Program-made: the position numbers and the translations under genes
NCBI GenBank assembly: GCA_964565195.1
Contig: CAZMCQ010000005.1
Coordinates: forward strand, 30,697 to 94,696
Length of the DNA: 64,000 nt
Source: an uncultured Candidatus Saccharibacteria bacterium
GTDB lineage: Bacteria > Patescibacteriota > Doudnabacteria > UBA920 > 2-01-FULL-46-14
Reading direction: 5' to 3'
The notes under the pieces: generated by a model
What the model was told of the DNA's origin: nothing
Databases searched by the model: none
The model's input: only the letters and a program-made list of their open reading frames with translations
Part shown: one piece after another, positions 2,021-51,091 of the stretch
Numbering within the stretch: the stretch's first letter is position 1
Layout: each line of letters begins with the position of its first letter

Positions 2021-2046
2021 CAGGCACTATTCGTAAGGGTATCAAC

Positions 2047-5934: not shown

Positions 5935-5952
5935 TTTTAGTGGTTTTTTTAT

Positions 5953-5990
5953 GTCTACAGACTATAGCAATTGCTATCGAGTGTAGACAA
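5953..5990. repeat. Nested palindromic element, copy A (TGTCTACA...ATAGCAATTGCTAT...TGTAGACA)
   Basis: Outer 8-bp inverted arms flank a perfect inner palindrome ATAGCAATTGCTAT. A T-run lies on the 5' side. A near-identical second copy sits at 28458..28495. Confidence 0.7.
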
Positions 5991-6004
5991 AAGAGATATA
6001 AGAC

Positions 6005-6611
6005 TTATAATGTTTGGAATTTTTTAGATAATATCCCTAGTTGTTTTTTGCGCATGATGAGGCGCGGGCCGGAGGCAATTATCTTTTTTGCAGCTTTTAA
6101 ATATTCTCTTGCGCGGGCTGGCTGGTCAGCGCGCAGGGCTTCAGCGAGGCGCATGTAGGCGCCGGAATGCCAGACATTGGCAGTGAAGGTGTCAAACTGG
6201 CCGAAATATTTTTTAACTTGATTCAATCCTTTTATCATCAGTTGCTCGCCTTTACTTTTTTGTCCGGCTAGATAGAGCGCGAACCCAAGATGGCCCGTCC
6301 AGTTTGTAGAAACTTGTGGCGAGTTTATAATTTCCATTTAACGCATGCATTTCTCCGACGATAAAAAGTGTGGTCGCGCTTTGCGCCAGCAATAATTGCG
6401 TTTCCGCGTCTTTGAGCGCGAGCATGGCCAGGTCAGGATTACGCGTCAATTGAAAGAGGTGTTTATAGATGTAGCTTCGGTGGCCAAAAGCAGAGGCAAG
6501 CGTTTTGTGATCGCGATCTTTTTGGAGCTGCCAAATGATCTTATTGACCAACAGAAAAGCCGCCTGGTGGCGGGCCTGTTCACGCAGCTTGGCTACTTGG
6601 GCTAGTCCCAT
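6005..6611 (-). pseudogene. TPR-repeat-like gene split into two overlapping frames (frameshift candidate)
   Basis: ORFs 6252..6611 and 6005..6337 are on the same strand in adjacent frames and overlap by 86 nt. Both show TPR-like periodicity (W..LG..Y..A, e.g. NWTGHLGFALYLAGQ). GC is about 46%, against about 58% in the flanks. Confidence 0.4.
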
Positions 6612-6618
6612 TGGTTTG

Positions 6619-6849
6619 TTATTTCATTCCGACTTTCTCTTCAAGTTTTTTGACGCGAACTTCGATGCGGTTGATATCGGCATAAAATGCTTTATCCAGC
6701 TTCGTCTCCACCAAACGCAGGCGATCATCAATTCCATCAACCTTTTTTTCCAGCCGTGCATGGTCATCTTTTGTGGCAGTGTTATCAAAACCAGCCTTGA
6801 TCATTTCGGCCAGATCATCCAGCGTTGTATTGTTATTTTTTTCAGCCAT
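6619..6849 (-). CDS. Small coiled-coil protein, paralog 1 (76 aa), function unknown
   Basis: GGAG lies 4 nt upstream of the ATG. The heptad-rich sequence ...LAEMIKAGFDNTATKDDHARLEKKVDGIDDRLRLVETKLDKAFYADINRIEV... is about 45% identical without gaps to the ORF at 28613..28855. The region is AT-rich. Confidence 0.6.
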   Translation of the reverse strand: MAEKNNNTTLDDLAEMIKAGFDNTATKDDHARLEKKVDGIDDRLRLVETKLDKAFYADINRIEVRVKKLEEKVGMK

Positions 6850-6880
6850 ATCTCCATATTAGAATGCTAAATAATTTTGG

Positions 6881-9013
6881 TCAAATTTCCGGCCATTTTT
6901 GGACCATTAGCAGATCATCCGAGAGATGCGACCAGATGTGTTCGGTCACGAACGGCATAATGGGGTGGAGGAGCTTGAGAACATTTATCAGGCAGTAGAG
7001 GAGAACCTTTTGCGTATTTTTATTCAATGCTTCGTCTTTGAGCTGCGGCTTTGATTCTTCAAGATAGATATCTGCGAAATTATGCCACGTGAATTGATAA
7101 ATTTCCTGGGCTGCCTCGTGGAGATTAAAATTTTCCAAAGCTGCGGTGACCTTTTGTTTTGTTGATTCCAAACCGGCGAGGATTTTTTTGTCGGCCTCGG
7201 TTTCTGCCTTTGGAATTTGGGATTTGATATTTGGATTTTGCAGGTTTGTTAATACAAACCTGCTGATGTTCCAGAGCTTGTTAGCAAAGTGCTTCATGCC
7301 TTTGATTTTATCCTCGGAGAGCGGGATGTCATTGCCCGCGGCGGTCGAAAAAATAAGCGCAAACCGCAAGGCGTCGGTGCCATAGGTATCGATGACGCCG
7401 AGCGGATCCACGACATTGCCGCGGCTTTTACTCATCTTTTGGCGGTCTTTATCGCGGACCAGGCCATGCAACAAAACTTTTTCAAAGGGAGGCTTGCCGG
7501 TTTTGTAATATGATAGCATGATCATCCGGGCAACCCAGAAAAACAGGATATCCCAGCCGGTTTCCATCACCTGTGTAGGATAAAAGATTTTAAAATCCTT
7601 TTCCGAATGCGCCATGAGCGTGGCATAGGGCCACTGGCCCGAGGAGAACCAGGTGTCAAAGGTATCCGGATCTTTTTCCAATTTTGACGATTTACACTTT
7701 GGACATTTATTGACTCTGTCTTGGAGATCCACGATTACCTCGCTGCAATTTTGGCAATATTTTACGGGAATCGGTATGCCCCACCAGATCTGGCGGGAGA
7801 TGGGCCAGTCGCGGATATTTTCCATCCAGTGCATGAAGATTTTTTCAAACCGCTTCGTGACGATTTGCACTTCTTTTTTCATGACTGCTTTTACCGCCCG
7901 GTCGCGCAAAGTCGTCATGCCCACAAACCACTGCGGGATGATTTGCGGCTCAATGATCGAGCCGCACTTGTAGCAAAGCTGGACATTGTGCTGGTATTTT
8001 TCATCAATTTTTTCGAGCAGTCCCTTCGCCTTGAGTTTTTCCACGATTTTCGGCCGCGCTTTGCTAATATGCAGGCCGGTGAATTCCCCGGCAATCGGCA
8101 GGAGCTTCCCTTTGCGGTCAATAATTTTTTCCATATCCAGATTGTGCCGCTGGGCGATTTCAAAATCTATCGGATCATGCGCCGGGGTGATGGTCATCAC
8201 GCCACTGCCGAATTCCATATCCACGGCCTTATCCTTGATTACCGTTGCGGTGATGGGTCCGTTGATCCATTCTAGCTCGATTTTTTGCCCATCCTTATAT
8301 TTTTTATATCGTTTATCATCAGGATGCATGACGACATATTTGTCACCGAATTTGGTTTCCGGACGGGCGGTAGCGATTGTGAATGGGCCATATTTCAGGT
8401 AATAAAAGGGCTCTTGGCGTTCCTCGTATTTGGTTTCGAGATCAGAAAGCGCGGTCTGATGGCGCGGACACCAGTTGCCGATACGGCCGGCGCGGTACAC
8501 GAGGCCATCGCGATACATCTGTTCAAAAGTTTCATAAATGATTTTAACAATTCGTTCGTCAAGCGTGAAGATGTTGCGGCTCCAGTCGCAGGATGAACCC
8601 AGGCGCTTGATGCCCTCTTCAGAAATGTGTTTATTCTGCTGAACAAAATCCCAAATTTCTTTGTAAAATTCTTCGCGCGTCATCGCAAAGCGCGAGCGAC
8701 CTTCTTTTTCCAGCTTTTTTTCGAAAACGACTTGCGTCTCAAAACCGGCATGATCTGTGCCGGGCAGCCACAGGGTTTTTCGGCCGCGCATGCGCTCAAA
8801 GCGGATCAAGATGTCCTGAATGGTGAGGCCCAAAGCGTGACCGACATGCAGCGGCGCATTGGCATTGGGCGGGGGCATTATTATAGTGTAGGGTTTGCCG
8901 GAAAGCTTGTCCGGATTAAAAAAACCCGAACGCTCCCAGCGCTGGTAGATTTTATTCTCGACTTCTTTGGGATTGTAGTTTTTCGGGAGATCTTTCATAA
9001 AAAACGTCGTCAT
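6881..9013 (-). CDS. valS: Valyl-tRNA synthetase (short form)
   Basis: Class I aaRS with PPPNANAPLHVGHALG (HIGH), KMSKSRGNVVDP (KMSKS) and the LWLPGTDHAGFETQ block typical of ValS. At 710 aa it is shorter than canonical ValS. Confidence 0.8.
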   Translation of the reverse strand: MTTFFMKDLPKNYNPKEVENKIYQRWERSGFFNPDKLSGKPYTIIMPPPNANAPLHVGHALGLTIQDILIRFERMRGRKTLWLPGTDHAGFETQVVFEKKLEKEGRSRFAMTREEFYKEIWDFVQQNKHISEEGIKRLGSSCDWSRNIFTLDERIVKIIYETFEQMYRDGLVYRAGRIGNWCPRHQTALSDLETKYEERQEPFYYLKYGPFTIATARPETKFGDKYVVMHPDDKRYKKYKDGQKIELEWINGPITATVIKDKAVDMEFGSGVMTITPAHDPIDFEIAQRHNLDMEKIIDRKGKLLPIAGEFTGLHISKARPKIVEKLKAKGLLEKIDEKYQHNVQLCYKCGSIIEPQIIPQWFVGMTTLRDRAVKAVMKKEVQIVTKRFEKIFMHWMENIRDWPISRQIWWGIPIPVKYCQNCSEVIVDLQDRVNKCPKCKSSKLEKDPDTFDTWFSSGQWPYATLMAHSEKDFKIFYPTQVMETGWDILFFWVARMIMLSYYKTGKPPFEKVLLHGLVRDKDRQKMSKSRGNVVDPLGVIDTYGTDALRFALIFSTAAGNDIPLSEDKIKGMKHFANKLWNISRFVLTNLQNPNIKSQIPKAETEADKKILAGLESTKQKVTAALENFNLHEAAQEIYQFTWHNFADIYLEESKPQLKDEALNKNTQKVLLYCLINVLKLLHPIMPFVTEHIWSHLSDDLLMVQKWPEI

Positions 9014-9066
9014 TCTGAACGAAGTAAAGAATCTAGATTCTTCGTCTCTTTGATCCTCAGAATGAC
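9008..9066 (-). promoter_or_regulatory. Nested inverted repeat spanning the valS start codon and 5' leader
   Basis: Outer arms gtcattctga / tcagaatgac, middle arms gaacgaag / cttcgtc, and a central perfect palindrome agaatctagattct. This fills the tsaD-valS spacer and includes the valS ATG (9011..9013). Confidence 0.45.
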
Positions 9067-9090
9067 AGCCCTTTTAGTATTTTACCATAA

Positions 9091-10191
9091 TTATCTCCAG
9101 GATTTTAATTCTAGATTTGGATTGGCCTTCACCTGGTCAAAAGTCCGAAGGTCGCGGTATCGATAATGATAACTCGCCGCGAGCGCGATCATGCCGGCGT
9201 TGTCAGTGGTGAGAGAAGAATTGGGAATTAGGAATTTGGAATTAGGGAAGAATTTTTTAATTGCAGCTTTCAGTTGATGCCGCAGTTTTTTATTGGCGGC
9301 CACGCCGCCGCCCAGGAGAATGGTTTTGACTTTGTATTCCCGCGCCGCGCGGATAGTCTTTGCGACCAATACATCGACAATGGCCCGCTCAAGCGAAGCG
9401 GCGATGTCGGCGCGCAGTTTGTCATCGCGAGGGCGGAGCCCGTGGCGATCTCGGGATTGCTTCCCCCGACCTTGCGTCGGGGTCGCAATGACATCATTAT
9501 ATAAATACAAAACCGCGGTCTTGAGGCCAGAAAAGGAAAAATCATAATTTTTTCGATCAAGCATCGGCCGCGGCAAATCAAATGCGCGCGGATTGCCTTG
9601 TTCCGCGAGCTTCGCAAGAGCGGGCCCGCCGGGATAAGGAAGCCCCAGCAGCTTGGCGACTTTGTCAAAACACTCGCCAGCCGCGTCATCCACTGTCTCG
9701 CCGATAATTTTGTATTGCCCGATCTTTTTGATTAGCACCAACATCGTATGCCCGCCGGAGACGATAAGGCCGAGGGCGGGAAAATAGGTTTTAGGAGATA
9801 GCTTATAGGTTATAGGAAGAGCGGACAGGAGATGGCCTTCCAAGTGGTTGATTGGAATGATTGGTTTGTTTAGCGCAAAGGCCAGGGCTTTGGCAGTATC
9901 CACGCCGATGCGAAGCGAGGTAACGAGGCCCGGGCCGATTGTGACAGCAATGGCATCAATTTCTCGGAGATGGACCCCCGCCTGCGCGAGGGCCTGCCTG
10001 ATTACAGGCAGGATTTTTAGGATATGGTTTCTGGCCGCGACTTCCGGCACAATGCCGCCAGTCTTGCGGTGGACCGCGATTTGCGAATAGATGATGTTGC
10101 TGCGGAGCTTCCCATCCGTCAAGACCGCGGCCGAGGTCTCATCCGCCGAGGTTTCAATGGCTAAGAGGGAAACTTTACGTTGTTTCTTCAT
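9091..10191 (-). CDS. tsaD: tRNA N6-adenosine threonylcarbamoyltransferase (Kae1/YgjD family)
   Basis: MKKQRKVSLLAIETSADETSAAVL... with the HLEGHLLSA metal-binding region. Start chosen at MKKQ (10189..10191) to avoid a 110-nt overlap with the upstream ABC gene. The C-terminal region contains an FPNSKFLIPNSS insertion encoded by the GGAATT repeat at 9221..9250. Confidence 0.85.
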   Translation of the reverse strand: MKKQRKVSLLAIETSADETSAAVLTDGKLRSNIIYSQIAVHRKTGGIVPEVAARNHILKILPVIRQALAQAGVHLREIDAIAVTIGPGLVTSLRIGVDTAKALAFALNKPIIPINHLEGHLLSALPITYKLSPKTYFPALGLIVSGGHTMLVLIKKIGQYKIIGETVDDAAGECFDKVAKLLGLPYPGGPALAKLAEQGNPRAFDLPRPMLDRKNYDFSFSGLKTAVLYLYNDVIATPTQGRGKQSRDRHGLRPRDDKLRADIAASLERAIVDVLVAKTIRAAREYKVKTILLGGGVAANKKLRHQLKAAIKKFFPNSKFLIPNSSLTTDNAGMIALAASYHYRYRDLRTFDQVKANPNLELKSWR

Positions 10192-39265: not shown

Positions 39266-39967
39266 ATGACACAGCGGCAGGCCCAAATTTTGGCGGCAAT
39301 TGTCAAAGAATACAGCGAAACCGGCACGCCGGTGGCGTCTTTGGATTTGGCCAAAAAATACAACTTTGACATAAGTCCCGCGACGATTAGAAATGAAATG
39401 GTCATTCTGGAAGACGAGGGGTATATCACCCAGCCGCACACTTCGGCCGGCCGCATTCCGACTGACGCGGGCTACCGGTATTTCGTGAACAAACTGATGA
39501 AGCATCTGGAACTTTCCAGTCAGGAACAGCTGCGGCTGCAGGAGGAAATTCGCAAACTGCAGAAGCAGTACCTCGAGCTCGGACAGGGGCTGGCCAAGCT
39601 GCTCGCCCAGAAGACCGAGGGCGCGGCTTTTGCGCTCCTCCCCCAAGGAACGAGCGCTGCGGGGCTATCCAATGTCATTGAGCAGAGTTCGAGCGTGGAT
39701 GAGATGAAAGAGATGGCGCATTTTTTGGATGAGCTGGAAGAACGCGGCCAATCTTTGGTCAAGACCCATTCCGAAGAGGTTGAAACTCTGATCGCGCCGA
39801 GCTACAGTCTGCTGGTCCGCCGCGTGCGCTTGCCGGGCGGGGACCGCGGCGTGATCGGCATCGTGGGCCCGAAGCGCATGAAATACGCGCGGAACATATC
39901 GCTGTTGGAATATGTTAGCAAGTTTCTTGCAGGTGGTTTGGTATTGCTGATGGTTGTTAAGCTATGA
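39266..39967 (+). CDS. hrcA: Heat-inducible transcription repressor HrcA (short form, 234 aa)
   Basis: TQRQAQILAAIVKEYSETGTPVASLDLAKKYNFDISPATIRNEMVILEDEGYITQPHTSAGRIPTDAGYRYFV N-terminal wHTH, with a CIRCE just upstream and grpE-dnaK-dnaJ downstream. Confidence 0.85.
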   Translation: MTQRQAQILAAIVKEYSETGTPVASLDLAKKYNFDISPATIRNEMVILEDEGYITQPHTSAGRIPTDAGYRYFVNKLMKHLELSSQEQLRLQEEIRKLQKQYLELGQGLAKLLAQKTEGAAFALLPQGTSAAGLSNVIEQSSSVDEMKEMAHFLDELEERGQSLVKTHSEEVETLIAPSYSLLVRRVRLPGGDRGVIGIVGPKRMKYARNISLLEYVSKFLAGGLVLLMVVKL

Positions 39968-40074
39968 AATGTAAAATGCAAATATCAAAGTGCAAAATGA
40001 CAGTTGAAAATTAAAAATTTTGGATTTTACATTGTCATTTTGATTTTTGCATTTTGAATTTTAAATTTTTGAAA

Positions 40075-40548
40075 ATGATGCAAGATATAGAAAAACTTAA
40101 TAAAGAACTAAACGAATTTAAGAAGAAGAGTGATGACTATCTGAATTCCTGGAAACGCACGGCCGCGGATTTTGAAAATTACAAAAAGCGGCAGGATAAA
40201 GAGGCCCGCGAGCTCGTGCAGTTTGCCCAGGAGATTACGGTAGTAAAAATGCTGCCGACCCTGGAGTCGCTCGAGCAAGCCCTGAAGAACGCGCCGCAGG
40301 ACGAGCGGTTCAAAACCTGGTCAGAGGGGGTGCTCAAGATCGTTCAGCAGCTGGAAAAGGTTTTGCTCGAGATGGGGATAGAAAAAGTTAAAACTGTTGG
40401 TGAACAATTTGATCCTGCGCTCCACGAGGCAGTGGAGATGGTGGAGGACCCTCAGGCAAGCTCAGGGCATATTATTGAAGAAGTGCAAACAGGGTTTAAA
40501 TTAAATGGAAAATTAATCCGGCCAGCAAAGGTAAAAGTGGCCAAATAA
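40075..40548 (+). CDS. grpE: Nucleotide exchange factor GrpE
   Basis: [18 protein letters not shown] signature. Start taken at ATGATG (40075); the ORF track begins at an upstream TTG. Confidence 0.9.
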
Positions 40549-40558
40549 GGAAAAGTAT

Positions 40559-42355
40559 ATGCCAAAAATTATAGGTATTGACCTTGGAACAAGTAATAGC
40601 GCGGCGGCCGTGCTGGAGGGCGGCAAGCCGGTCATCATTCCGTCCGCGGAAGGCACGACAGTGGGCGGCGGCAAGGCGTTTCCGTCTTATGTGGCTTTCA
40701 CCAAAGACGGCGAGCTTTTGGTCGGCGAGCCGGCGCGGCGGCAGGCCGTGACCAACCCCGAGGGCACGGCTTATGCCGTGAAGCGCAAGATGGGCGCCAA
40801 AGAGAAAATTAAACTGCGCGACAAAGAATACACGCCCGAGCAGATTTCCGCGTTTATCCTGCAAAAAATCAAGCGCGATTCAGAGGCGTATCTTGGCGAG
40901 CCAGTGCCCAAGGCCGTGATTACGGTACCGGCATATTTTGACGACTCGCAGCGGCAGGCCACGAAAAACGCGGGCGAGATCGCCGGATTGGAAGTGATTC
41001 GGATCATCAATGAACCGACGGCCGCGGCTCTCGCCTACGGTTTGGATAAAAACGGCGCCGAGCAGAAGATCATGGTTTTCGACTTCGGCGGCGGCACGCT
41101 CGACGTGACGATCATGGATTTCGGGCAGGGTGTTTTTGAGGTCGTTTCCACTTCCGGGGACACGCACCTTGGCGGCACGGATATGGACAACGCGCTTATG
41201 GACTACATTGCCGGGGAATTTAAAAAAGAATCCGGCGTTGATATTAGAAACGATAAGATGGCTCTAAACCGCCTGAAGGAGGCGGCCGAAAAGGCGAAAA
41301 TCGAGCTCTCCACCACGCTCGAGACCGAGATCAATCTGCCGTTTATCACGGCGGACAGCGCGGGCCCGAAGCATTTAAGTCTGAAACTCACGCGCACAAA
41401 ACTGGAGCAACTGGTCCGGCCAATTGTCGAGTGCACCCAGAATTCAATTCAACAGGCGCTTTCGGATGCCAAACTTTCGCCGCAGGATATTGAAAAAGTC
41501 ATTCTGGTTGGGGGGCCGACGCGTATGCCGCTGGTGCAGAAGTTTGTCGAGGAATTTGTCGGCAAGCCGGCCGAACGCGGCGTGGACCCGATGGAAGCCG
41601 TGGCCAAAGGCGCGGCGATTCAGGCCGGGGTGCTTGGCGGGGAGGTCAAGGACGTTTTGCTCCTGGATGTCACCCCGCTGACTTTGGGCATCGAAACTCT
41701 GGGTGGGGTTTCCACTCCGCTGATTGACCGCAATACCACTATTCCGACCTCCAAGTCCCAGGTGTTTTCGACGGCGGCCGACAATCAGACCTCGGTGGAG
41801 ATTCACGTGCTGCAGGGCGAGCGGCCGCTCGCCGCGGACAACAAATCGCTTGGCCGGTTTGTGCTGGACGGCATTCCGCCGGCGCCGCGGGGCATTCCCC
41901 AGGTCGAGGTGACGTTTGACATTGACGCCAACGGCATTCTCAAAGTCGCTGCCCGCGACAAGGCCACGAGCAGGGAGCAGCACATCACCATCACCGGTTC
42001 GTCTAATCTCTCCAAGGACGAGATTGAGCGGATGCGCAAGGAGGCCGAGGCGCATGCCGAAGAGGATCGCCGGCGCCGCGAACTGATTAACACGCGCAAC
42101 CAGGCCGATCATCTCATCTCGGTCGTGGAAAAAACTTTGAAAGACGCCGGGGATAAGGTTGACGCCGCGACCAAAGTCAAACTGGAAACTCTTGTCTCGG
42201 ACTTGAAGAAAGCCAAGGACGGCAATGATATGGACGCGCTCAAGAAGAAAATGGATGAGGTGAGCGCCGAGATCCAGAAAGTCGGCGCGGCCATGTATAA
42301 AGATGCGGACAAAGATAAGCCCAAGGACGCGGATTTTGAGGAGAAGAAGGAGTAA
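40559..42355 (+). CDS. dnaK: Molecular chaperone DnaK (Hsp70)
   Basis: [39 protein letters not shown] Hsp70 signatures. 598 aa. Confidence 0.97.
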
Positions 42356-42442
42356 TTGTTAAAGTCTTTGCGAGCGAAGCGAAGCAATCTCGAATTTCAT
42401 GGGGTTGCTTCGTCATTTCACTCCTCGCAATGACAGTTCATT

Positions 42443-43603
42443 ATGGCCAGGAATTATTACGACATTTTAGGCGTTTCCAAAAACGCGTCGCGCGACGAGA
42501 TTAAGCGCGCCTACCGAAAACTGGCGCACGAATACCATCCGGATAAACAGCACGGCCGCGGCGACGAGCAAAAATTCCGCGAGCTAAACGAGGCCTACGA
42601 GGTTTTGTCGGACGAGACCAAGCGCGCGCAGTATGACCAGTTTGGTCAGACTTTTGAGTCCGCCAGAGGCGGACAGGCAGGCTTTGGTGGGTTCTCTGGA
42701 TTCAATGATTTCTCCGAATTTATGAAGGGCTTTGGCCAGAACTATTCGCGCGGGCCGTATGCGGGCATGGAATTCGACTTCGGCGATATTTTCTCGGATA
42801 TCTTTGGCGCGCCGCGGCAGAGCCGCAAGCGTCAGGGCGTGGATCTCGAGATGACGCTCGAGATCAATTTTCCCGAGTCAGTTTTTGGCGCGGAAAAAGA
42901 ACTAACCCTTGAAAAAAAAGACGCCTGCCCGCGCTGCGCGGGTTTGGGCGCCGAGCCGGGCAGTAAAAACAAGGCCTGTCCTAAATGCCACGGCCAGGGA
43001 CAGATTATCACGCATCAGAAAACCATTCTCGGCAGTTTCCAGAGCGCGCAAACCTGCGACCGATGTATGGGTTCCGGACAGGTGCCGGAAAAAGAATGCA
43101 CGGAGTGCAAAGGCGCGGGCTGGAAGAAAGTGAAGAAGAAGGTCAAAGTTGTGATTCCGCCCGGGATAGGCGACAGCCAGCGGCTCAAACTTACCGGCGA
43201 AGGAGAATTCGGTTACAAAGGCAGCAAATCAGGCAATCTATATATTGTGATAAGAGTAAAACCGCATCCGGAATTCGTGCGCGCCGGCTTTGACATCCGC
43301 AGCGAAGTGCCGATAAGTTTTTATCAGGCCGCGCTCGGCGCGAAGATCGAGGTCAAAACCGTGGACGGCCCGGTGATGCTCAAAATTCCGGCGGGCATTC
43401 AGTCCGGCGAGGTGCTGCGTTTGCGCGCAAAGGGTGTGCCGCATCTCGAGAGCACGCGCCGCGGCGATCATCTCCTCACCATCCGCATCATCACGCCAAC
43501 GAAGCTAACCCGCAAAGAAAAAGAATTATTTAAGCAAATGGCCGGGGAGCGCGGCGAAGCCGGCAGCATTGACGAGAGCTTTTGGGATAGACTGAAAAAA
43601 TAA
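42443..43603 (+). CDS. dnaJ: Molecular chaperone DnaJ
   Basis: J-domain with HPD ([13 protein letters not shown]), G/F region, four CxxCxGxG zinc motifs. Confidence 0.95.
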
Positions 43604-43630
43604 AATTCGCTCTTCTGGCGAATTTTATTC
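43604..43630 (+). terminator. Rho-independent terminator after dnaJ
   Basis: AAAATTCGC-tcttctg-GCGAATTTT stem-loop followed by a T-rich tract. It abuts the 3' end of the convergent tRNA-Ala. Confidence 0.6.
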
Positions 43631-43707
43631 TGGTGGAGATAGCCGGATTCGAACCGGCGACCTTCGCATTGCAAATGCGACGCTCTAACCAGCTGAGCTA
43701 TATCCCC
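43631..43707 (-). tRNA. tRNA-Ala (anticodon UGC), CCA encoded
   Basis: Reverse complement GGGGATATAGCTCAGCTGGTTAGAGCGTCGCATTTGCAATGCGAAGGTCGCCGGTTCGAATCCGGCTATCTCCACCA. Confidence 0.9.
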
Positions 43708-43956
43708 TCATTGCCCTTTCAATCCGCTGAAGATTGACGCCAGCGGGCCGAGGAACAGTTCCAAAAGGCCAAACATATACATTCCGGACAGGATGATTGC
43801 TGCCAGCCCGATCAGTTTGTAAAGCAAATACGTCCCGCCGGAGGAGAGATGCTGCTCGGCCCAAGGCACCTTGCCGAAAAGGCCGACCAGCGGATAAGTC
43901 TTCCAGATGAGCAACGTGCCGAGGCCGATGCCAATTAGTCCCCAAATGATGCGCAT
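43708..43956 (-). CDS. Small membrane protein (82 aa, 2 TM helices) packed exactly between tRNA-Ile and tRNA-Ala
   Basis: MRIIWGLIGIGLGTLLIWKTYPLVGLFGKVPWAEQHLSSGGTYLLYKLIGLAAIILSGMYMFGLLELFLGPLASIFSGLKGQ. The ATG lies 5 nt after the tRNA-Ile CCA and the TGA stop abuts the tRNA-Ala 5' end. There is no Shine-Dalgarno sequence. Confidence 0.35.
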   Translation of the reverse strand: MRIIWGLIGIGLGTLLIWKTYPLVGLFGKVPWAEQHLSSGGTYLLYKLIGLAAIILSGMYMFGLLELFLGPLASIFSGLKGQ

Positions 43957-43961
43957 ATGTT

Positions 43962-44036
43962 TGGTGGGCACGGATGGAATCGAACCATCGACCCCTTCAT
44001 TATCAGTGAAGTGCTCTGCCCCTGAGCTACGTGCCC
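43962..44036 (-). tRNA. tRNA-Ile (anticodon GAU), CCA encoded
   Basis: Reverse complement GGGCACGTAGCTCAGGGGCAGAGCACTTCACTGATAATGAAGGGGTCGATGGTTCGATTCCATCCGTGCCCACCA. Confidence 0.9.
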
Positions 44037-44148
44037 TCGTCGCAATGCGCACATTATCAAATTTTGACATTCTTGGCAAGTTTGTGATATATTAAATCCT
44101 AGATTTTCTCACGGCTCATGGGTTTTTGAAAGCAAAAATATAAAATTA

Positions 44149-45168
44149 ATGCTATTTGCCCGCACCAAAAGCAAATTAGGGATCGATATCGGCACTTCTA
44201 GCATAAAAGTCGTCCAATTAACAAAAGCACAAGAGAAATTTGTTTTGGAAACCTATGGCGTGGTGAGCGTGGCCTTCCCGGGGGGCCTCGCGGAAGGCTT
44301 TGATGCGATTGCCAAGACCGCGGAGATTTTGAAAAGTCTTCTGGCGCGCGCCAAGACCACCACGAAGAAGGTCGTGGCGAGCCTGCCGAACAGCATTGTC
44401 TTTGTCTCGGTCATTGATATGCCGGAAATGTCCGAAAAAGAGCTCAAAGACTCCATTGAATTCGAGGCGAGACGGTATGTGCCGCTGCCGCTCGAGGAGG
44501 TTACGCTGTCCTGGAGCGTACTCAAAGAAGGCGCGCTCGCGAGTCCCAAAGTAAAAGTTCTGCTCACCGCGGTCCCGACCAACGTGATTGATAATTATCT
44601 CAAAATGTTCAAACTCGCCGGCCTTGAACCAATTGCCCTGGAGATTGAATCGCTGGCGCTGATCCGGTCTCTGGTGGGCGCGCGCCGCGAAAGCTTCATC
44701 ATCATTGACATGGGCGCGCGCAGCACTTCTTTGAACCTCGTGGACAAGGGTTTTCTGCGGGTCAGCCGCAACCTCTCGGCCGGCGGCGAGACGATCACCA
44801 ATGCGGTGGCGCAGGGCCTCAAGGTGAGTTTTGCCCGCGCCGAGCAATTTAAGCGCGATCTGGGTTTGTCGGAAAGCGCGTCTGACCAGATCCCCCAGAC
44901 CATACGTCAGACCATTGATGTCATCAAAAGCGAGACTTCGCAACTCATTAATATTTACCAGTCCTCCGGCGAGACCATCGCGGAGATAATCCTGGCCGGT
45001 TCGAGTGCGCGTCTGCCGGGTTTGATCAAGTATTTTTCGGATTTGGGGCCAAAGGTGGTCCTGGGCGATCCGCTGCAGTTTATCAGTTTTGATTCGCGTC
45101 TCAAAAGTAATTTAGCCGAAAGTGCCTTGTCTTTATCTGTGGCCTTGGGCCTCGCCATGCGGGAATAA
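44149..45168 (+). CDS. pilM: Type IV pilus assembly ATPase-like protein PilM
   Basis: Actin-like fold and the N-terminal LGIDIGTSSIKVVQL motif. First gene of a pilMNO-pilB-pilT-pilC locus. Confidence 0.85.
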   Translation: MLFARTKSKLGIDIGTSSIKVVQLTKAQEKFVLETYGVVSVAFPGGLAEGFDAIAKTAEILKSLLARAKTTTKKVVASLPNSIVFVSVIDMPEMSEKELKDSIEFEARRYVPLPLEEVTLSWSVLKEGALASPKVKVLLTAVPTNVIDNYLKMFKLAGLEPIALEIESLALIRSLVGARRESFIIIDMGARSTSLNLVDKGFLRVSRNLSAGGETITNAVAQGLKVSFARAEQFKRDLGLSESASDQIPQTIRQTIDVIKSETSQLINIYQSSGETIAEIILAGSSARLPGLIKYFSDLGPKVVLGDPLQFISFDSRLKSNLAESALSLSVALGLAMRE

Positions 45169-45169
45169 A

Positions 45170-45730
45170 ATGGTCGAAATCAACCTTCTAAAAAATGAAT
45201 TACAGGAAAAAGGGCCGTTCTCATTCGGTCCGCCCGGCCTGGCCTCGTTTTATATCGTCGCGGCAGTAGTTGCCCTGGAGCTTTTCCTGTTCGGCGGTCT
45301 GGTGTTTTACCAGCAGTACCTCGCGCGGCAGGCACGGGCCGTCGAGCAGCAGGCGGTAGCGATTGATTTTGAGACCAGAGAATTGGATGCTGCTCGCTTG
45401 GCGGCGATTTCCTTCCAGCGGCGGGTCAGCAATCTGCAATTTCTTCTGCAAAACCACATTTTCTGGACCCCAATTTTCGATGAACTCGAAAAATTTACCT
45501 ACCGTGGCGCCCGCTATGGCACGCTGCAGGTGGACCAGTCGAAAGCCGAACTCCTGGTGAGCGGGGTGATTCCTTCCTACACTGAACTTGGTAAACTCAT
45601 GCTCGGCCTTAAGCAGTCACCCAATGTCTCAAACGTTACGCTCAACGCCACCGGGGCTACGCAATCCGGAGAGGCCGGTTATGAATTTACGATGCTCGTG
45701 AGTTTCAACCCAAAACTTTTGAGCAAATAA
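45170..45730 (+). CDS. pilN: Type IV pilus assembly protein PilN-like
   Basis: Start MVEINLLKNE 1 nt after the pilM stop. Single TM helix and coiled coil, typical PilN topology. Confidence 0.65.
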   Translation: MVEINLLKNELQEKGPFSFGPPGLASFYIVAAVVALELFLFGGLVFYQQYLARQARAVEQQAVAIDFETRELDAARLAAISFQRRVSNLQFLLQNHIFWTPIFDELEKFTYRGARYGTLQVDQSKAELLVSGVIPSYTELGKLMLGLKQSPNVSNVTLNATGATQSGEAGYEFTMLVSFNPKLLSK

Positions 45731-45732
45731 TT

Positions 45733-46338
45733 ATGGCCAAGCCGAAGTATACCTTCTCTCAATATCTAAGTGGCATCGGCGTTCCCTTGCTCGTGCTCGC
45801 GGGTGGACTGTTTGCTTACTTTATCGTCATGCCGAAATTTTCCGCCGCCCGCGCGGCGCGCGCCGAGGTCAGTTTGGCGCAGGCCGATGTGCAAAAACGC
45901 CAGGGGCAGCTTGCGACTGTCCAGCGACTGGCGGCGGATTATGAAGTCAAGCAAAACCGCCTCGAGCCCGTTGCCCTGGCGCTGCCGGACGCGCCCCGCA
46001 TTCCCGAACTGCTGGCCAATCTCGACGTCCTGGCCAAGCAGAGCGGTCTGCTGATTGCCTCGCTCCAGATCACGCCGGTGGCGATCGAGGTCAAACCCAA
46101 TGAGACGCAAGGCGCGCTGCCCAAGCGGACGCAGCTGCTGCGGCGCGCGGAGAACCTCGGGGTCCTGGAAATCAATGTCGGTCTCAAAGGCAAATATCCG
46201 AATGTGAAGGCGTTTCTGGCTAATCTGGAACAGAACCAGCGGCTGATGGACACGGACAGCCTCAACTTTGGCCTGGTGGAGGCAGAGTCAGGCTTGCAGG
46301 AATATGTTTTGAAGATTCAGACTTATTACCAAAAATAG
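45733..46338 (+). CDS. pilO: Type IV pilus assembly protein PilO-like
   Basis: N-terminal TM helix plus a coiled-coil periplasmic/extracellular domain. Directly follows pilN. Confidence 0.6.
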   Translation: MAKPKYTFSQYLSGIGVPLLVLAGGLFAYFIVMPKFSAARAARAEVSLAQADVQKRQGQLATVQRLAADYEVKQNRLEPVALALPDAPRIPELLANLDVLAKQSGLLIASLQITPVAIEVKPNETQGALPKRTQLLRRAENLGVLEINVGLKGKYPNVKAFLANLEQNQRLMDTDSLNFGLVEAESGLQEYVLKIQTYYQK

Positions 46339-46341
46339 GGT

Positions 46342-46686
46342 ATGAAATTTTTACCGGAAGACAAAAAGAAGACCGTTCGTGCTCTGCTGATTCTGATCGT
46401 CGCGGTCGGCGGGATCGTTTATTTTAATTTCTTTACCGGTTCCAAAACTGAAATTCTTCCGCCAACCGATACGAGCCAGTCTGCTGTGCCCAATGCCTCA
46501 AATTTGCCCGCCGCCCCGCCAGTGCAATTGCCATCCGCGCTGAAGAATCAGGGCGGCCTTCTGCCCTATGGCGGGACCATTGATCTCGGCATTCTCGATG
46601 ACGCCAGATTTAAGAGTTTAAAGAGCACTCCGCCTCTGGAAATTTTCCCGGAAGAACTCGGGCGGCCGAATCCCTTTGGTGATTAA
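46342..46686 (+). CDS. Small membrane-anchored Pro-rich protein in the pilus operon (PilP-like?)
   Basis: TM helix LLILIVAVGGIVYF, then a Pro/Ala-rich linker. Confidence 0.45.
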   Translation: MKFLPEDKKKTVRALLILIVAVGGIVYFNFFTGSKTEILPPTDTSQSAVPNASNLPAAPPVQLPSALKNQGGLLPYGGTIDLGILDDARFKSLKSTPPLEIFPEELGRPNPFGD

Positions 46687-46697
46687 CCTTTGCCTTT

Positions 46698-48446
46698 ATG
46701 GCCACGACCACTGCCGTAAAAAAAGCCGTTAGTTTTGAACAATTTTTGGTGGACGAGGGCTATGTCACCAAAAAACAGCTTGCGGATGTGCACCTCGCGC
46801 AGGTGAAAAGCAAGCTTCCCGTTGATCAGGCGCTCGTCGCCGAGAAAATTTTGGACGAGGAAAAACTGACGCGCGCGAAAGCCGTTTTTTTTCATCTGCC
46901 CTATGTGGACCTGCGGATAGTGGGGCTGCCCAAAGAAGCGCTCGCGGTCATTGCCAAAGAGACCATTGAGAACTATCGGTTTTTACCGTTTGCCAAGCAG
47001 GGCAATTTATTGAAAATCGCGCTTACGGACCCGGCGGATCTGCGGGCCCTCGAGGCGCTGGAATTTTTGGCGCAAAAAAATAAATACCGCATCGAACTCT
47101 ACCTGACGTCCAGGACCAGTTTTAGCGAAGCGCTGCACCGTTCCAAGACGATCACGACCGAAGTTTCCGAGGCCTTGCACATTATCGAGGAGAAAGAAAA
47201 AGAAGTCGGCAAGCCGCAAAAAGCGGCGGTGGAGGAAACGCGGAAAATCGCGGCCGAAGCGCCGCTCACGAAGATCGTGGACGTGATCATCGCGCACGCG
47301 ATCACGGCGCGCGCCTCGGACATTCACATCGAACCGCAGGAGAACGATTTGCGGATCCGGTACCGCATCGACGGCATTTTGCACAGCTCGTTGGTCGTCC
47401 CGAAGATCGTTCATCCCGGCGTGGTGTCACGCATCAAGATCCTTTCCAATCTCAAGATCGATGAGCAGCGCCTGCCGCAGGACGGCCGGTTTCATATGAA
47501 TATCGAGGACCGGTCGATTGACTTCCGCGTTTCCACCCTGCCGACGGTCAATGGCGAAAAAGTGGTGATGCGCATCCTCGACAAATCCGGCGGCGTACCG
47601 ACTTTGGAAGAACTGGGGCTTTCGGGCATGAAGCTGGAACGCCTGCGAGAAAATATCGTGAAGGCGCACGGCATGCTGCTCGTGACCGGCCCGACCGGCA
47701 GCGGCAAATCTACCACACTTTATGCCGTGCTGAACATCCTTAACAAAATCGGCGTCAACATCGTGACTCTGGAAGATCCGGTGGAGTACTATATTGAGGG
47801 CGTGAACCAGTCCCAGATCAATCCTGACATCGGCCTGACCTTTGCCTCGGGCCTGCGCTCCATCCTCCGGCAGGATCCGAACATCATCATGGTCGGCGAG
47901 ATCCGCGATCGCGAGACCGCGGAGCTGGCGGTGCACTCCGCGCTTACCGGGCACCTCGTGTTTTCGACGCTGCACACCAATGACGCGATCGGCGCGATCC
48001 CGCGGCTTTTGGACATGGGCATCGAGGCGTTTCTGCTGACCGCTTCGGTCAACGCCGTGATGGCGCAGCGCCTGGTGCGGAAGATTTGTCCGGATTGCAA
48101 GACGGAAATTCCCGTTCCGGACGAGATTCAAAAGATGTTCAAAGATGAGCTCAAAGACATTCCGGCCGGCGAAAGCGCGGCAGTGGATTTGTCCAAGATC
48201 AAGATGTTCAAAGGGCAGGGCTGCAAAACCTGCTCGGATACCGGCTACCAGGGACGGATCGCGATTTTTGAGGTGCTGCCGCTCTCGGACCCGATCAAAA
48301 ATATCATTCTGGAGCGCCAGTCTGTCGCCAAAATCAAGGAAACCGCCGTGGCCGAAGGTATGATTTTTATGAAACAGGACGGACTTTTGAAGGTGCTCGC
48401 CGGCCGCACGACCATCGAAGAGGTGATACGGGTAACGAAGGAATAA
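46698..48446 (+). CDS. pilB: Type IV pilus extension ATPase PilB (GspE family) with N-terminal GSPII_E_N domain
   Basis: Walker A GPTGSGKSTTLY, Asp box, His box, the CxxC...CxxC tetracysteine (CPDCK...CKTCSDTG). 582 aa. Confidence 0.92.
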   Translation: MATTTAVKKAVSFEQFLVDEGYVTKKQLADVHLAQVKSKLPVDQALVAEKILDEEKLTRAKAVFFHLPYVDLRIVGLPKEALAVIAKETIENYRFLPFAKQGNLLKIALTDPADLRALEALEFLAQKNKYRIELYLTSRTSFSEALHRSKTITTEVSEALHIIEEKEKEVGKPQKAAVEETRKIAAEAPLTKIVDVIIAHAITARASDIHIEPQENDLRIRYRIDGILHSSLVVPKIVHPGVVSRIKILSNLKIDEQRLPQDGRFHMNIEDRSIDFRVSTLPTVNGEKVVMRILDKSGGVPTLEELGLSGMKLERLRENIVKAHGMLLVTGPTGSGKSTTLYAVLNILNKIGVNIVTLEDPVEYYIEGVNQSQINPDIGLTFASGLRSILRQDPNIIMVGEIRDRETAELAVHSALTGHLVFSTLHTNDAIGAIPRLLDMGIEAFLLTASVNAVMAQRLVRKICPDCKTEIPVPDEIQKMFKDELKDIPAGESAAVDLSKIKMFKGQGCKTCSDTGYQGRIAIFEVLPLSDPIKNIILERQSVAKIKETAVAEGMIFMKQDGLLKVLAGRTTIEEVIRVTKE

Positions 48447-48462
48447 TAAACTATAATTATAA

Positions 48463-48801
48463 ATGCGCGTATTACTGCTCGACCCAGACGAATATTATCA
48501 TCAGGAATTCCGCCGTCACCTTGCCGATGTGGCCGAAGTGCTCGTCGCCCGCGAGGCCGCGGCCGCCCGCGCGCTTTTGCCGCAGGTGGATCTCTGCGTG
48601 ATGGAGCTCTTGCTGGCGGATGCGCCGGGTTATGAAGTTTTAAAGGATATGCGAGGAGAGCTGCCGGTCGTGATTTATTCGCGGGTGGACCACCCCGACG
48701 ATATCGAAGCCGCGCTCTCGTTTGGGGTAAGCGGTTATTTCGTCAAGGGCCGCGATACCGTCAATGACGTGAAAAAATTACTTTTAAGTTTTAGCGCGTG
48801 A
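48463..48801 (+). CDS. CheY-like receiver domain protein with Glu in place of the phospho-acceptor Asp (pseudo-receiver)
   Basis: VLLLDPDEY (acidic pocket), VDLCVMELLLADAPG where Glu replaces the phosphorylatable Asp, conserved Ser (VVIYSRV) and Lys (GYFVKG). It lies between pilB and pilT, with a TGATG stop/start overlap with pilT. Confidence 0.6.
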   Translation: MRVLLLDPDEYYHQEFRRHLADVAEVLVAREAAAARALLPQVDLCVMELLLADAPGYEVLKDMRGELPVVIYSRVDHPDDIEAALSFGVSGYFVKGRDTVNDVKKLLLSFSA

Positions 48802-49886
48802 TGCCGATCAATTATCGAAATCGCGAAGCCGAACTGGAGGGCCTGCTGTCTTTTGTGCTCGAGGCCGCGGCCTCGGATTTGCATCTTTTGGCCGGCAAGC
48901 CGCCGATTATCCGCGTGGATAGCAATTTGGTACCGGTCGAGGGCTACGGCGTGTACGACGCGGACTCGCTTGCCGATCTCCTCCTCGTGCTGTTGAACGA
49001 AGCACGCGCCATGCAGCTTCGGGAAAAACGTCAGGTGGATTTTTCCTATAGTTTTAAAGACCAGGCCCGGTTTCGGGTCAATTTGTATTACCAAAAGGGA
49101 ACGCTCGCCGGCGCGTTCCGTCACATCCCGACGAAAATCCGGACGCTTGCCGAACTCAATCTGCCCTCGCGGCTTGCGGACTTTATGAAATATCGTCAGG
49201 GACTCATCCTGATGTGCGGGCCGACGGGTCATGGCAAATCCTCAACCCTAGCCGCGCTCATTGATCTGGTCAACCACGCGCGGGCCGATCACGTTATTAC
49301 CATTGAGGACCCGATCGAATATATTTTCACCCAGGACAAATCCATCGTGAGCCAGCGGGAAGTCTATCAGGATACCGAGGGGTTCGCGCCAGCCATCCGC
49401 GCTACGCTGCGCGAGGATGTCAATGTCGTGATGGTCGGCGAGATGCGCGATCTGGAGTCCATCGCGACCACGATCACCGTGGCCGAAACCGGGCACCTGG
49501 TGCTCGCGACCTTGCACACCAATGATGCTCCGCAGAGCATTGATCGCATTATTGATGTTTTTCCGAGCCACCAGCAGAATCAGATCCGGTCGCAACTGGC
49601 GAACATTCTGATCGGGGTTGTCTCGCAGCGGCTTCTGCCGCGGATCGGCGGGGGCCGTGTCCCGGCGGTGGAGATTATGATCTCCAACTCGGCCACGAGA
49701 AACGTCATCCGCGAGGGCCGGACGTATGAACTTGCCAATATCATCCATACCAGTTCCGCGGAAGGCATGGTGAGTTTGGATCAGTCCCTCTCGGAACTCA
49801 CGCGCCGTGGGCAAGTGAAACTCGAGGATGCCATAGCGTATGCGGTCAATGCCGATTTATTTAAATCCTTAGTGAAGAGATTTTAA
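48801..49886 (+). CDS. pilT: Twitching-motility / pilus retraction ATPase PilT
   Basis: Walker A GPTGHGKSSTLAA, Walker B VVMVGEMRD, His box. About 360 aa, typical of PilT. Confidence 0.9.
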   Translation: MPINYRNREAELEGLLSFVLEAAASDLHLLAGKPPIIRVDSNLVPVEGYGVYDADSLADLLLVLLNEARAMQLREKRQVDFSYSFKDQARFRVNLYYQKGTLAGAFRHIPTKIRTLAELNLPSRLADFMKYRQGLILMCGPTGHGKSSTLAALIDLVNHARADHVITIEDPIEYIFTQDKSIVSQREVYQDTEGFAPAIRATLREDVNVVMVGEMRDLESIATTITVAETGHLVLATLHTNDAPQSIDRIIDVFPSHQQNQIRSQLANILIGVVSQRLLPRIGGGRVPAVEIMISNSATRNVIREGRTYELANIIHTSSAEGMVSLDQSLSELTRRGQVKLEDAIAYAVNADLFKSLVKRF

Positions 49887-51091
49887 TGCTGTTCGATTAC
49901 AAGGCGCGGGACGAACAGGGCGTCATCCGCAAGGGCGTGGTGGAGGCGGGATCAGAAACGCAGGCCTCGCAGATTCTCCATGACCACAACCTGGTTGTTA
50001 TTTCCCTGGAAGCCGAAGAGCCGAAACTGGATCTTGGCAAGTTTATCCCGTTCCTGGGCCGCGTGCCGCGTAAAGAGCTCGTGATTTTTTCGCGACAGCT
50101 CTCCACGCTGATCAATGCCAAGGTGCCGATTATTCAGGCCTTTGAGATTTTGTCGAGCCAGGTTACCAGCCGGAAACTGAAAGATGTGATCGGCGAGATG
50201 ATTGCCGACATCGAGGGTGGCAAAAGTTTGTCGGAAAGCATTTCCCGTTTCCCCCGCGTCTTCTCCAATCTCTACATCAATTTGGTCAAAGCCGGCGAGC
50301 TGTCTGGCACGCTCGACCAGTCGCTTCTCTATCTCGCCGATCAGGAGGAGAAAGATTATGACCTCATCTCCAAGGTGCGCGGCGCACTCACTTACCCGAT
50401 CTTCATCATCTCCGCGATCGGCATTGTCGGCGCGCTGATGTTCATTTTTGTGTTGCCGCAGATGATCTCCGTGCTCCGCGAAGCCGGCGCGGCTCTGCCA
50501 ATTACCACGAGGGTTTTAATTTTTTTGACCGATATTTTCCGCGGCTACTGGTATGTGCTCCTGCTGGGGCTTGTCGGCCTCATCGTTGGTTTCCAGTTTT
50601 ACCTTCATAGCCATTCCGGTCGGATTGTCTGGGATCACGCGATCCTGAAAATGCCGATCGTCGGCAAGCTTCTCCAGAAAATTTATATGGACCGCTTCGC
50701 GCGCAACCTCGCGACGCTCACGGCCGGCGGTATCCCGATTGTGCAGTCGCTGCATACGGTGGCGGACATTGTCGGTAACACGGTTTACCGGCGGATCATC
50801 GAGGCCGCTGCCGCCGAGGTGGAGACCGGCAAATCCATTGCCGTGGTGTTTGGCCAGCACAAGGAGATTCCCACGATCGTGACGCAGATGATCCGCATCG
50901 GCGAGCAGACCGGCTCGCTCGACGAGATTCTGGGCAAGCTGGCGCATTTTTACGACAAGGAAGTGGACAGTACGCTTTCCACATTGACCACGCTTCTCGA
51001 GCCGATTATTATGATTCTGCTCGGCTTCGCGGTTGCGGTTATGGTTGCAGGAATTTTACTTCCGATTTATAATCTAGCTAACATTCAATAA
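49886..51091 (+). CDS. pilC: Type IV pilus platform protein PilC (GspF family)
   Basis: 401 aa with two GspF repeats and 3 TM segments. Start overlaps the pilT stop (TAATG). Confidence 0.9.
   Translation: MLFDYKARDEQGVIRKGVVEAGSETQASQILHDHNLVVISLEAEEPKLDLGKFIPFLGRVPRKELVIFSRQLSTLINAKVPIIQAFEILSSQVTSRKLKDVIGEMIADIEGGKSLSESISRFPRVFSNLYINLVKAGELSGTLDQSLLYLADQEEKDYDLISKVRGALTYPIFIISAIGIVGALMFIFVLPQMISVLREAGAALPITTRVLIFLTDIFRGYWYVLLLGLVGLIVGFQFYLHSHSGRIVWDHAILKMPIVGKLLQKIYMDRFARNLATLTAGGIPIVQSLHTVADIVGNTVYRRIIEAAAAEVETGKSIAVVFGQHKEIPTIVTQMIRIGEQTGSLDEILGKLAHFYDKEVDSTLSTLTTLLEPIIMILLGFAVAVMVAGILLPIYNLANIQ

Follow-up and report, generated by a model that had tools for sequence, protein, structure and literature searches.

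A 64,000-nucleotide (nt) stretch of DNA from an uncultured Candidatus Saccharibacteria bacterium (contig CAZMCQ010000005.1, positions 30,697 to 94,696; hereafter the window) contains an open reading frame (ORF) of 82 codons lodged between the transfer RNA (tRNA) genes tRNA-Ile(GAU) and tRNA-Ala(UGC). Sequence comparisons indicate that this 249-nt frame is a real gene. What is new here, as judged from these comparisons, is a conserved and selected gene for a small membrane protein that resides in stable-RNA operons of Patescibacteria, including ribosomal RNA (rRNA) spacers. We consider it likely that the ORF is part of a stable-RNA unit composed of a promoter, tRNA-Ile, the ORF, tRNA-Ala and a terminator hairpin, and that this unit descends from an ORF-bearing 16S-23S spacer whose rRNA genes have since moved away. 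The protein is probably made from the stable-RNA transcript. Read 5' to 3', the cassette in the window is as follows:

43962..44036, minus strand: tRNA-Ile(GAU), CCA encoded (ARAGORN; Rfam RF00005, 72.5 bits)
43957..43961, minus strand: leader AACAT, 5 nt from the CCA of tRNA-Ile to the ATG, without a Shine-Dalgarno (SD) motif (read from the sequence)
43708..43956, minus strand: ORF of 82 codons plus stop (249 nt, TGA at 43710-43708), predicted two-helix membrane protein (ORF list, substitution rates, family profile)
43631..43707, minus strand: tRNA-Ala(UGC), CCA encoded (ARAGORN; Rfam, 76.8 bits), with a G3:U70 pair read from the sequence

The gap between the two tRNAs measures 254 nt (43708..43961) and consists of AACAT followed by ATG...TGA. 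The last base of the stop codon abuts G1 of tRNA-Ala on the same strand, with a spacing of 0 nt, and the encoded 82-residue protein is MRIIWGLIGIGLGTLLIWKTYPLVGLFGKVPWAEQHLSSGGTYLLYKLIGLAAIILSGMYMFGLLELFLGPLASIFSGLKGQ. A first-pass annotation of the window had described the tRNA pair, the 254-nt gap, the 5-nt leader and the stop touching tRNA-Ala, and ARAGORN, Rfam and the sequence itself confirm the coordinates; that description is right, except that it left unstated that all of these features lie on the minus strand. Four tRNAs are found by Rfam in the whole window at the gathering threshold. The same-strand order of tRNA-Ile(GAU) and then tRNA-Ala(UGC), as in the rRNA spacer, is present in the window. 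The absence of rRNA genes, also proposed in the first-pass annotation, was confirmed, as neither Rfam at the gathering threshold nor blastn with the 16S, 23S and 5S of a relative detected rRNA in the 64 kb, and the window holds no 16S upstream and 23S downstream within ~1.5 kb of the pair.

A chance open frame of 82 codons is expected at ~2% per frame ((61/64)^82), and the evidence from conservation is, on the sequences compared, far stronger than this argument. A word-indexed search returned four close homologues of 70-83 amino acids (aa) in addition to the window's own copy. These homologues all lie between tRNA-Ile(GAT) and tRNA-Ala(TGC), with pilMN divergent on the tRNA-Ile side; the partial exception is locus L014, a short contig with only a tRNA-Ile fragment before the ORF. 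Their downstream neighbours vary by locus (dnaJ, ftsH, PhdYeFM). Two checks had been proposed in the first-pass annotation, a look for homologues between tRNAs in relatives and a test of conservation by the ratio of nonsynonymous to synonymous substitution rates (dN/dS), and both gave positive results: the same two tRNAs flank the orthologues, and purifying selection was found, with dN/dS of 0.05-0.24 and dS at or near saturation among six distinct orthologues (Nei-Gojobori method). Differences between L011 and L015 by codon position are 6/2/31, so that third positions dominate. Indels among orthologues are multiples of three, and the positions of start and stop are conserved. The codon-position pattern and the dN/dS values point to purifying selection at the protein level, and a chance frame or a purely structural RNA is therefore ruled out.

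The notion of an untranslated, structured spacer RNA in which the open frame is incidental would fit an ORF that has no SD motif and a leader of only 5 nt. It would also fit the public NCBI annotation, which gives a different product of 120 aa (P0001, MSKFDNV..., window 43708-44070, minus strand) that starts upstream of tRNA-Ile and reads through the tRNA gene. We regard this notion as close to refuted, because the substitutions follow a protein pattern, the indels keep the frame and the start and stop positions are conserved, the family has members without nearby tRNAs, and Rfam finds no RNA family in the gap. We note that longer database members of the family (P0010, P0013, P0018 and P0037) have N-terminal extensions resembling translated tRNA 3' ends. 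Systematic mis-starts of family members arise because a tRNA adjoins the ORF. Predicted tryptic peptides of the 82-aa protein include TYPLVGLFGK and VPWAEQHLSSGGTYLLYK.

The window protein matches the family profile over its full length (positions 1-80, E 1.7e-33, hmmsearch), including the loop motif FG...WAE..L..GGT..YK, and a profile search finds a single family copy in the window. An exhaustive profile search of a 1.84-billion-protein library gave 253 representative clusters at E <= 1e-3, nearly all of 70-90 aa, and a word-indexed search with a 32-sequence profile gave 932 clusters at 90% identity. All 932 clusters are labelled 'hypothetical protein', and their named sources are Magasanikbacteria, Uhrbacteria, Komeilibacteria, the Parcubacteria group or the Patescibacteria group. 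As far as these named sources show, the family appears to be restricted to Patescibacteria, or the Candidate Phyla Radiation (CPR). With 932 clusters, it is a widespread and unannotated small membrane protein, overlooked by gene callers or given a wrong start. The family has no match in Pfam, NCBIfam, PHROGs or PADLOC, the PDB gives no sequence-profile match, and all Foldseek matches against the PDB have E > 1. Our literature searches found no description of the family or of a conserved spacer ORF.

An AlphaFold2 model built from 79 sequences (predicted local distance difference test score, pLDDT, 85) contains a helix at residues 2-18, two short loop helices, a helix at residues 41-62 and a C-terminal helix at residues 64-80. 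The helices at 2-18 and 41-62 are both hydrophobic. The model therefore indicates a small membrane protein with two predicted transmembrane helices joined by the conserved loop, which bears out the two-helix protein proposed from the translation in the first-pass annotation. A relationship to SecG was considered and rejected, as there is no match to Pfam SecG (PF03840), the hhalign probability against E. coli SecG is 0.2%, and no sequence match was found in the PDB. A small membrane protein of phage or defence origin, such as a holin or a type I toxin, was also rejected, given the lack of PHROGs or PADLOC matches and a context of housekeeping genes. Our guess is that the protein is a small structural or accessory membrane subunit.

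To describe the genomic context of the family, 104 loci were gathered and grouped into 72 clusters at ~90% amino-acid identity, of which 67 were informative for tRNA counts within 700 nt; the genome collection contributed one locus only (L016). In 54/67 clusters, the 700 nt upstream of the ORF contain a tRNA on the same strand (Val(TAC) in 36, Ile(GAT) in 14, Leu(GAG) in 2 and Ile(TAT) in 2), and in 46/67 the 700 nt downstream contain tRNA-Ala(TGC). Within 300 nt, a tRNA is found upstream in 44 and downstream in 40 of 64 clusters, compared with a background expectation of 1.2%. The p-values for this enrichment overstate the case, as the clusters are not phylogenetically independent, but the effect is still very large. 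The distance from the ORF stop to tRNA-Ala is between -10 and +12 nt in 21 clusters. The linkage persists among proteins that are only 37-56% identical, with dS saturated, which indicates, on these sequences, that it is old. Contexts follow the protein tree, an unrooted tree of ~80-aa proteins built by the unweighted pair group method with arithmetic mean (UPGMA), and can be listed by clade:

Clade I (including the window): tRNA-Ile, ORF, tRNA-Ala; tRNA-Ile inverted in six clusters
Clade II: (tRNA-Leu or tRNA-Arg), tRNA-Val, ORF, tRNA-Ala; tRNA-Ala lost in a sub-clade
Clade III: no tRNAs, or one upstream only; ORF followed by methyltransferase, UPF0102, NusA, YidC

Clade II is a large sister clade with tRNA-Val(UAC), not tRNA-Ile, upstream. 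Since tRNA-Ala(UGC) stays downstream while the upstream tRNA switches between Ile and Val, tRNA-Ala(UGC) is the constant partner. It may be asked whether the position of the ORF is merely passive, that is, whether a real gene has been placed in a tRNA cluster by the tight packing of a small genome and its linkage has no regulatory or mechanistic meaning. The wide variation of spacing in the family (-10 to several hundred nt), the clade without flanking tRNAs, the inverted tRNA-Ile of six clusters and the -10 boxes that several members have of their own would all agree with a passive position. We consider it unlikely, however, since the linkage in 40-44/64 clusters, against 1.2% expected, holds across proteins as divergent as those described above, tRNA-Ala(UGC) is kept downstream despite the change from Ile to Val upstream, and the window physically lacks the space for independent signals.

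The link to rRNA operons comes from relatives. In three species-level lineages (L068; L104/L105; L106/L107), Rfam places tRNA-Ile, the ORF and tRNA-Ala inside the spacer of an intact 16S-23S-5S operon:

L068 (SDBS01000001.1): 16S 1955-3433, tRNA-Ile 3815-3891, ORF 3992-4237, tRNA-Ala 4274-4350, 23S 4522-7592, 5S 7706-7822
L104 (GCA_042571975.1): 16S 4047-5526, tRNA-Ile 5823-5899, ORF 6001-6252, tRNA-Ala 6297-6373, 23S 6557-9709, 5S 9839-9956
L106 (JGI 3300068096): 16S 1711-3185, tRNA-Ile 3447-3524, ORF 3586-3843, tRNA-Ala 3930-4005, 23S 4176-7202, 5S 7356-7472

L105 (GCA_042568785.1) has the same order as L104, an identical ORF and slightly shifted rRNA coordinates, and L107 repeats the L106 arrangement in part. 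The 16S-23S spacers with the ORF measure 990-1088 bp. The spacer-resident ORFs are 68-79% identical to one another, with dN of 0.21, dS of 0.95 or saturated, and dN/dS of ~0.2. Looser arrangements were also found: in L098 and L081 a 16S is followed by an inverted tRNA-Ile, the ORF and tRNA-Ala, with no 23S within 2.5 kb, and in L043 and L037 the 16S lies 3-4 kb upstream with other genes between. We note that a universal 16S primer pattern missed even the 16S of L068, and rRNA was therefore detected by Rfam and blastn. According to published surveys, Patescibacteria commonly have unlinked rRNA genes (bioRxiv 10.1101/705046; PMC8172020), and Lui et al. 2021 found them unlinked in each of the five ABY1-class genomes that they examined (PMC8172020). 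The simplest reading of these arrangements is that the ORF was already part of the spacer, flanked by tRNA-Ile and tRNA-Ala, when the operon broke up, a polarity that we infer, and the window cassette is most likely a free-standing descendant of a 16S-23S spacer. The first-pass annotation had suggested a remnant of a disrupted rRNA operon with a captured ORF. Its link to an rRNA operon is upheld by the three lineages and by the intermediates with 16S only, but recent capture is not, as the ORF appears to be a long-standing resident that predates the break-up and has tRNA-Val(UAC) upstream in the sister clade. The cassette may thus serve as a marker for reconstructing the break-up of rRNA operons in Patescibacteria, a phylum known for unlinked rRNA genes.

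Candidate transcription signals were found on both sides of the cassette:

44051..44079, minus strand: promoter-like site (putative), -35 TTGCCA (44079-44074), 14 nt, extended -10 TGATAATGT (44059-44051)
43595..43631, minus strand: terminator-like hairpin (folding), core AAAAUUCGC...GCGAAUUUU, followed by a U-run

The promoter-like site ends 14 nt before the 5' end of tRNA-Ile, and 8 other Clade-I loci (9 including the window) have an architecture of T(T/G)(T/G)ACA, 14 nt and TGnTA(A/G)A(G/T)T in the corresponding place before tRNA-Ile. The hairpin has a folding free energy of -13.6 kcal/mol and a z-score of -6.15, with 0/200 shuffles as stable. It begins at the terminal A of the tRNA-Ala CCA and overlaps the dnaJ stop codon, and it is shared with the convergent dnaJ. 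A terminator-like hairpin occurs only after tRNA-Ala, with none between the ORF and tRNA-Ala.

For translation, the first-pass annotation had noted that the ORF has no SD motif and had concluded that leaderless-like or coupled initiation is needed. The lack of the motif is correct, but the conclusion is weak: only 7/45 long ORFs in the window (~16%) have an SD-like motif (GGAG, GAGG or AGGA at -18..-4), and dnaJ and pilM have none. SD-independent initiation thus seems to be the rule in the window's genome, and since most window ORFs lack an SD motif, its absence before the 82-aa ORF is unremarkable. The 16S of the relative L068 ends with the usual CCUCCU. Leaders from the tRNA end to the ATG are 5-32 nt long in 25 clusters and are composed of 45% A, 35% T, 9% G and 10% C. 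In several members that have no tRNA next to them, a perfect TATAAT lies 8-14 nt ahead of the ATG; such boxes would give very short or absent leaders, which is suggestive of a family habit. A pattern in which the 5' end of the messenger RNA (mRNA) lies close to the AUG fits ~40/71 clusters.

With 5 nt upstream and 0 nt downstream of the ORF, there is no space for a promoter or terminator of its own, and only co-transcription of all three genes explains the layout economically. A single transcript would carry tRNA-Ile, the ORF and tRNA-Ala. RNase P would cut it at G1 of tRNA-Ala, directly after the UGA stop, and 3' maturation of tRNA-Ile would cut within the 5-nt leader. Release of the ORF in this way, which the first-pass annotation had put forward as RNase P/Z processing, is a reasonable suggestion from the spacing. 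The product would be an mRNA with almost no leader or trailer, translated without an SD motif like most genes of the genome. Alternatively, translation may take place on the precursor, ahead of processing. With such a unit, synthesis of the membrane protein would follow a stable-RNA (growth-rate) promoter, and the lifetime of its mRNA would be set by tRNA processing. By analogy with the secG-leuU transcript of E. coli, the downstream tRNA may also act as a stabiliser of the mRNA until it is cleaved.

Several points weigh against a stable-RNA unit of spacer origin. Spacing is the basis on which co-transcription, the processing sites and translation are all proposed. The promoter-like and terminator-like sites both escaped a consensus promoter and terminator scanner, the former because its -10 matches 3/6 positions of TATAAT; the promoter-like site rests on cross-species conservation and the hairpin on folding, so both are putative. 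In ~29/71 clusters, neither a tRNA end nor a -10 box can be recognised close to the ATG. In L001 and L024, the ORF and tRNA-Ala share 10 nt, and an RNase P cut there would remove the stop. Translation in these two must therefore use the unprocessed transcript, and processing and translation would be alternatives for each transcript. The spacer-first polarity depends on parsimony and on the unrooted UPGMA tree of 80-aa proteins. The largest clade has tRNA-Val upstream, Clade III has no flanking tRNAs or one upstream only, and the inversion of tRNA-Ile in six Clade-I clusters implies that linkage to the upstream tRNA is not obligatory. Finally, our view of the window's genome covers 64 kb, which bears on where its rRNA genes lie.

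The stable-RNA unit also allows a broader proposal, which we put forward tentatively and hold to be possible rather than probable. The flanking tRNAs may act as punctuation that releases a leaderless and trailerless mRNA from a stable-RNA precursor, in some lineages the rRNA spacer itself. This would be a bacterial counterpart of mitochondrial punctuation, tied to ribosome production and kept for a long time. The cassette also lends itself to the study of SD-independent or leaderless translation in bacteria, on an mRNA that tRNA-processing enzymes would have cut out.

Among known systems, as far as analogy goes, secG-leuU of E. coli is the closest case mechanistically and the CPR spacers with '2 tRNAs, 1 ORF' are the closest architecturally, while mitochondrial punctuation is comparable by analogy only. 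In E. coli, secG and leuU share a transcript that RNase P cuts in two, after which the secG mRNA is degraded within 30 s (Mohanty & Kushner 2008, PMC2241853). Like secG-leuU, the window cassette has a gene for a small, predicted two-helix membrane protein with a tRNA immediately downstream, known here from sequence alone. Unlike it, the window protein belongs to a family unrelated to SecG, and the window ORF also has a tRNA 5 nt upstream, a stop that abuts the downstream tRNA, and a probable derivation from an rRNA spacer (or, in relatives, a location within one). Protein genes downstream of tRNAs and transcribed from the tRNA promoter are present in the E. coli operons thrU-tyrU-glyT-thrT-tufB and tyrT-tpr. 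These genes have a normal SD leader and no tRNA after the stop, whereas the window ORF has no SD motif and is followed by a tRNA. Animal mitochondrial mRNAs, as Ojala, Montoya and Attardi are said to have described in 1981, are joined directly to a tRNA at either end, from which RNase P and RNase Z free them. Their leader is very short or absent, their stop lies at or beyond the cleavage site, and polyadenylation completes stop codons. That system is organellar, and the parallel drawn here comes purely from spacing in a bacterial genome of the free-living type.

The canonical bacterial spacer has the order 16S-tRNA-Ile(GAU)-tRNA-Ala(UGC)-23S with a short non-coding gap between the tRNAs. The window agrees with it in the identity, order and orientation of the two tRNAs, but an ORF fills the gap and no rRNA genes are present in the window. 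To our knowledge, protein genes inside rRNA operon spacers are rare and, outside homing endonucleases, unanalysed. CPR operons 'linked by 2 tRNAs, 1 ORF' have been tabulated, for example a Peregrinibacteria spacer of 1025 bp (Lui et al. 2021, PMC8172020, Fig 3C, S1 Table), and that study names only homing endonucleases and leaves single spacer ORFs unidentified (PMC8172020). The operons described here resemble those entries in having an ORF in a Patescibacteria 16S-23S spacer of similar length (990-1088 bp), a comparison of layout and not of ORF family. Beyond that table, our analysis adds conservation of the ORF, selection, family membership and persistence after the break-up of the operon.

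Fragments and inserts of tRNA genes were observed near the ORF in relatives. In several of them, the tRNA-Ile(GAT) beside the ORF is split by an insert of ~150-250 nt without target duplication (L024 ~3700-4000; L040 ~3740-4000; L036 ~3560-3880; L027 ~3400-3710; L016 ~3150-3260; L014 1-85; L015 57-125). The insert has inverted-repeat ends (e.g. CCCCGCACCTTC / GAAGGTGCGGGG) and contains a complete second tRNA-Ile(GAT), and the insertion points differ (positions 26/27, 31/32 and 35/36). When joined, the tRNA-Ile halves of L040 match the intact tRNA-Ile of L046 and L027 with 100% identity. Two readings may be offered for the insert: an element that targets tRNA genes and supplies a substitute tRNA, or an intervening sequence akin to an intron. 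No such split tRNA-Ile or insert occurs in the window. The truncated tRNA-Ile before the ORF in L014, L015, L024 and L040 was considered as a deletion-derived, selected 'mini-tRNA' processing signal and rejected, as longer upstream sequence reveals it to be the 3' half of an insertion-split tRNA-Ile. On the other side, L011 (3123-3209; also L012 and L013), L031 and L098 have a 5' half of tRNA-Ala at or after the ORF stop. The half in L011, GGGCCTATAGTTAAACGGTAAAACACCGCATTTG, breaks in the anticodon loop and is followed by a hairpin and then by a complete, different tRNA-Ala(TGC); proteins of the L011 type have a shortened C-terminus and are 71 aa long. L021 (5648-5975) has two direct repeats of ~150 nt between tRNA-Val(TAC) and the ORF; the 3'-terminal 20 nt of tRNA-Val (GACTCCCTCGTTGCCCACCA) close each repeat, and 27 nt separate the last copy from the ATG. 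At the position corresponding to the L021 repeats, L070 gives a weak match to a tRNA (30 bits).

These partial copies bring up mobile-element cargo or debris, in which a tRNA-targeting element would carry the ORF along with tRNA fragments and the ORF would not be a resident housekeeping gene. Both the fragments flanking the ORF in many relatives (split tRNA-Ile in L024, L040, L036 and L027; tRNA-Ala 5' halves in L011, L031 and L098; repeated tRNA-Val 3' ends in L021) and the variable downstream neighbours would be expected of such an element. Nevertheless, we find this origin very improbable. No integrase or transposase lies beside the cassette in the window or in the inspected loci, the family has no PHROGs or PADLOC match, and the window holds a single copy. 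In addition, the ORF phylogeny tracks context clade by clade with pilM synteny kept, and the inserts lie within the tRNA and not around the ORF.

The neighbours of the cassette in the window are the following:

42443..43603, plus strand: dnaJ, convergent neighbour, last gene of hrcA-grpE-dnaK-dnaJ (Pfam DnaJ, DnaJ_CXXCXGXG, DnaJ_C)
44064..44093: promoter-like site of pilM's own, TTGACA-18-TATATT (promoter scan)
44149..45168, plus strand: pilM, divergent neighbour, first gene of pilM-N-O-B-T-C (Pfam PilM_2)

The cassette is flanked by a complete heat-shock operon, hrcA-grpE-dnaK-dnaJ (39266-43603, plus strand), and by a type IV pilus operon, pilM-N-O-B-T-C (44149-51091, plus strand). pilM lies near the cassette in most Clade-I relatives, including those with an inverted tRNA-Ile. 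Among the rRNA genes of relatives, the 16S of L098 is interrupted by two ORF-containing insertions of ~1 kb (195-1325 and 2205-3152), one of which has an LLGDG (LAGLIDADG-like) motif. An ORF of the 23S_rRNA_IVP family lies between 23S and 5S in L105 (9872-10276) and is absent from its close relative L104.

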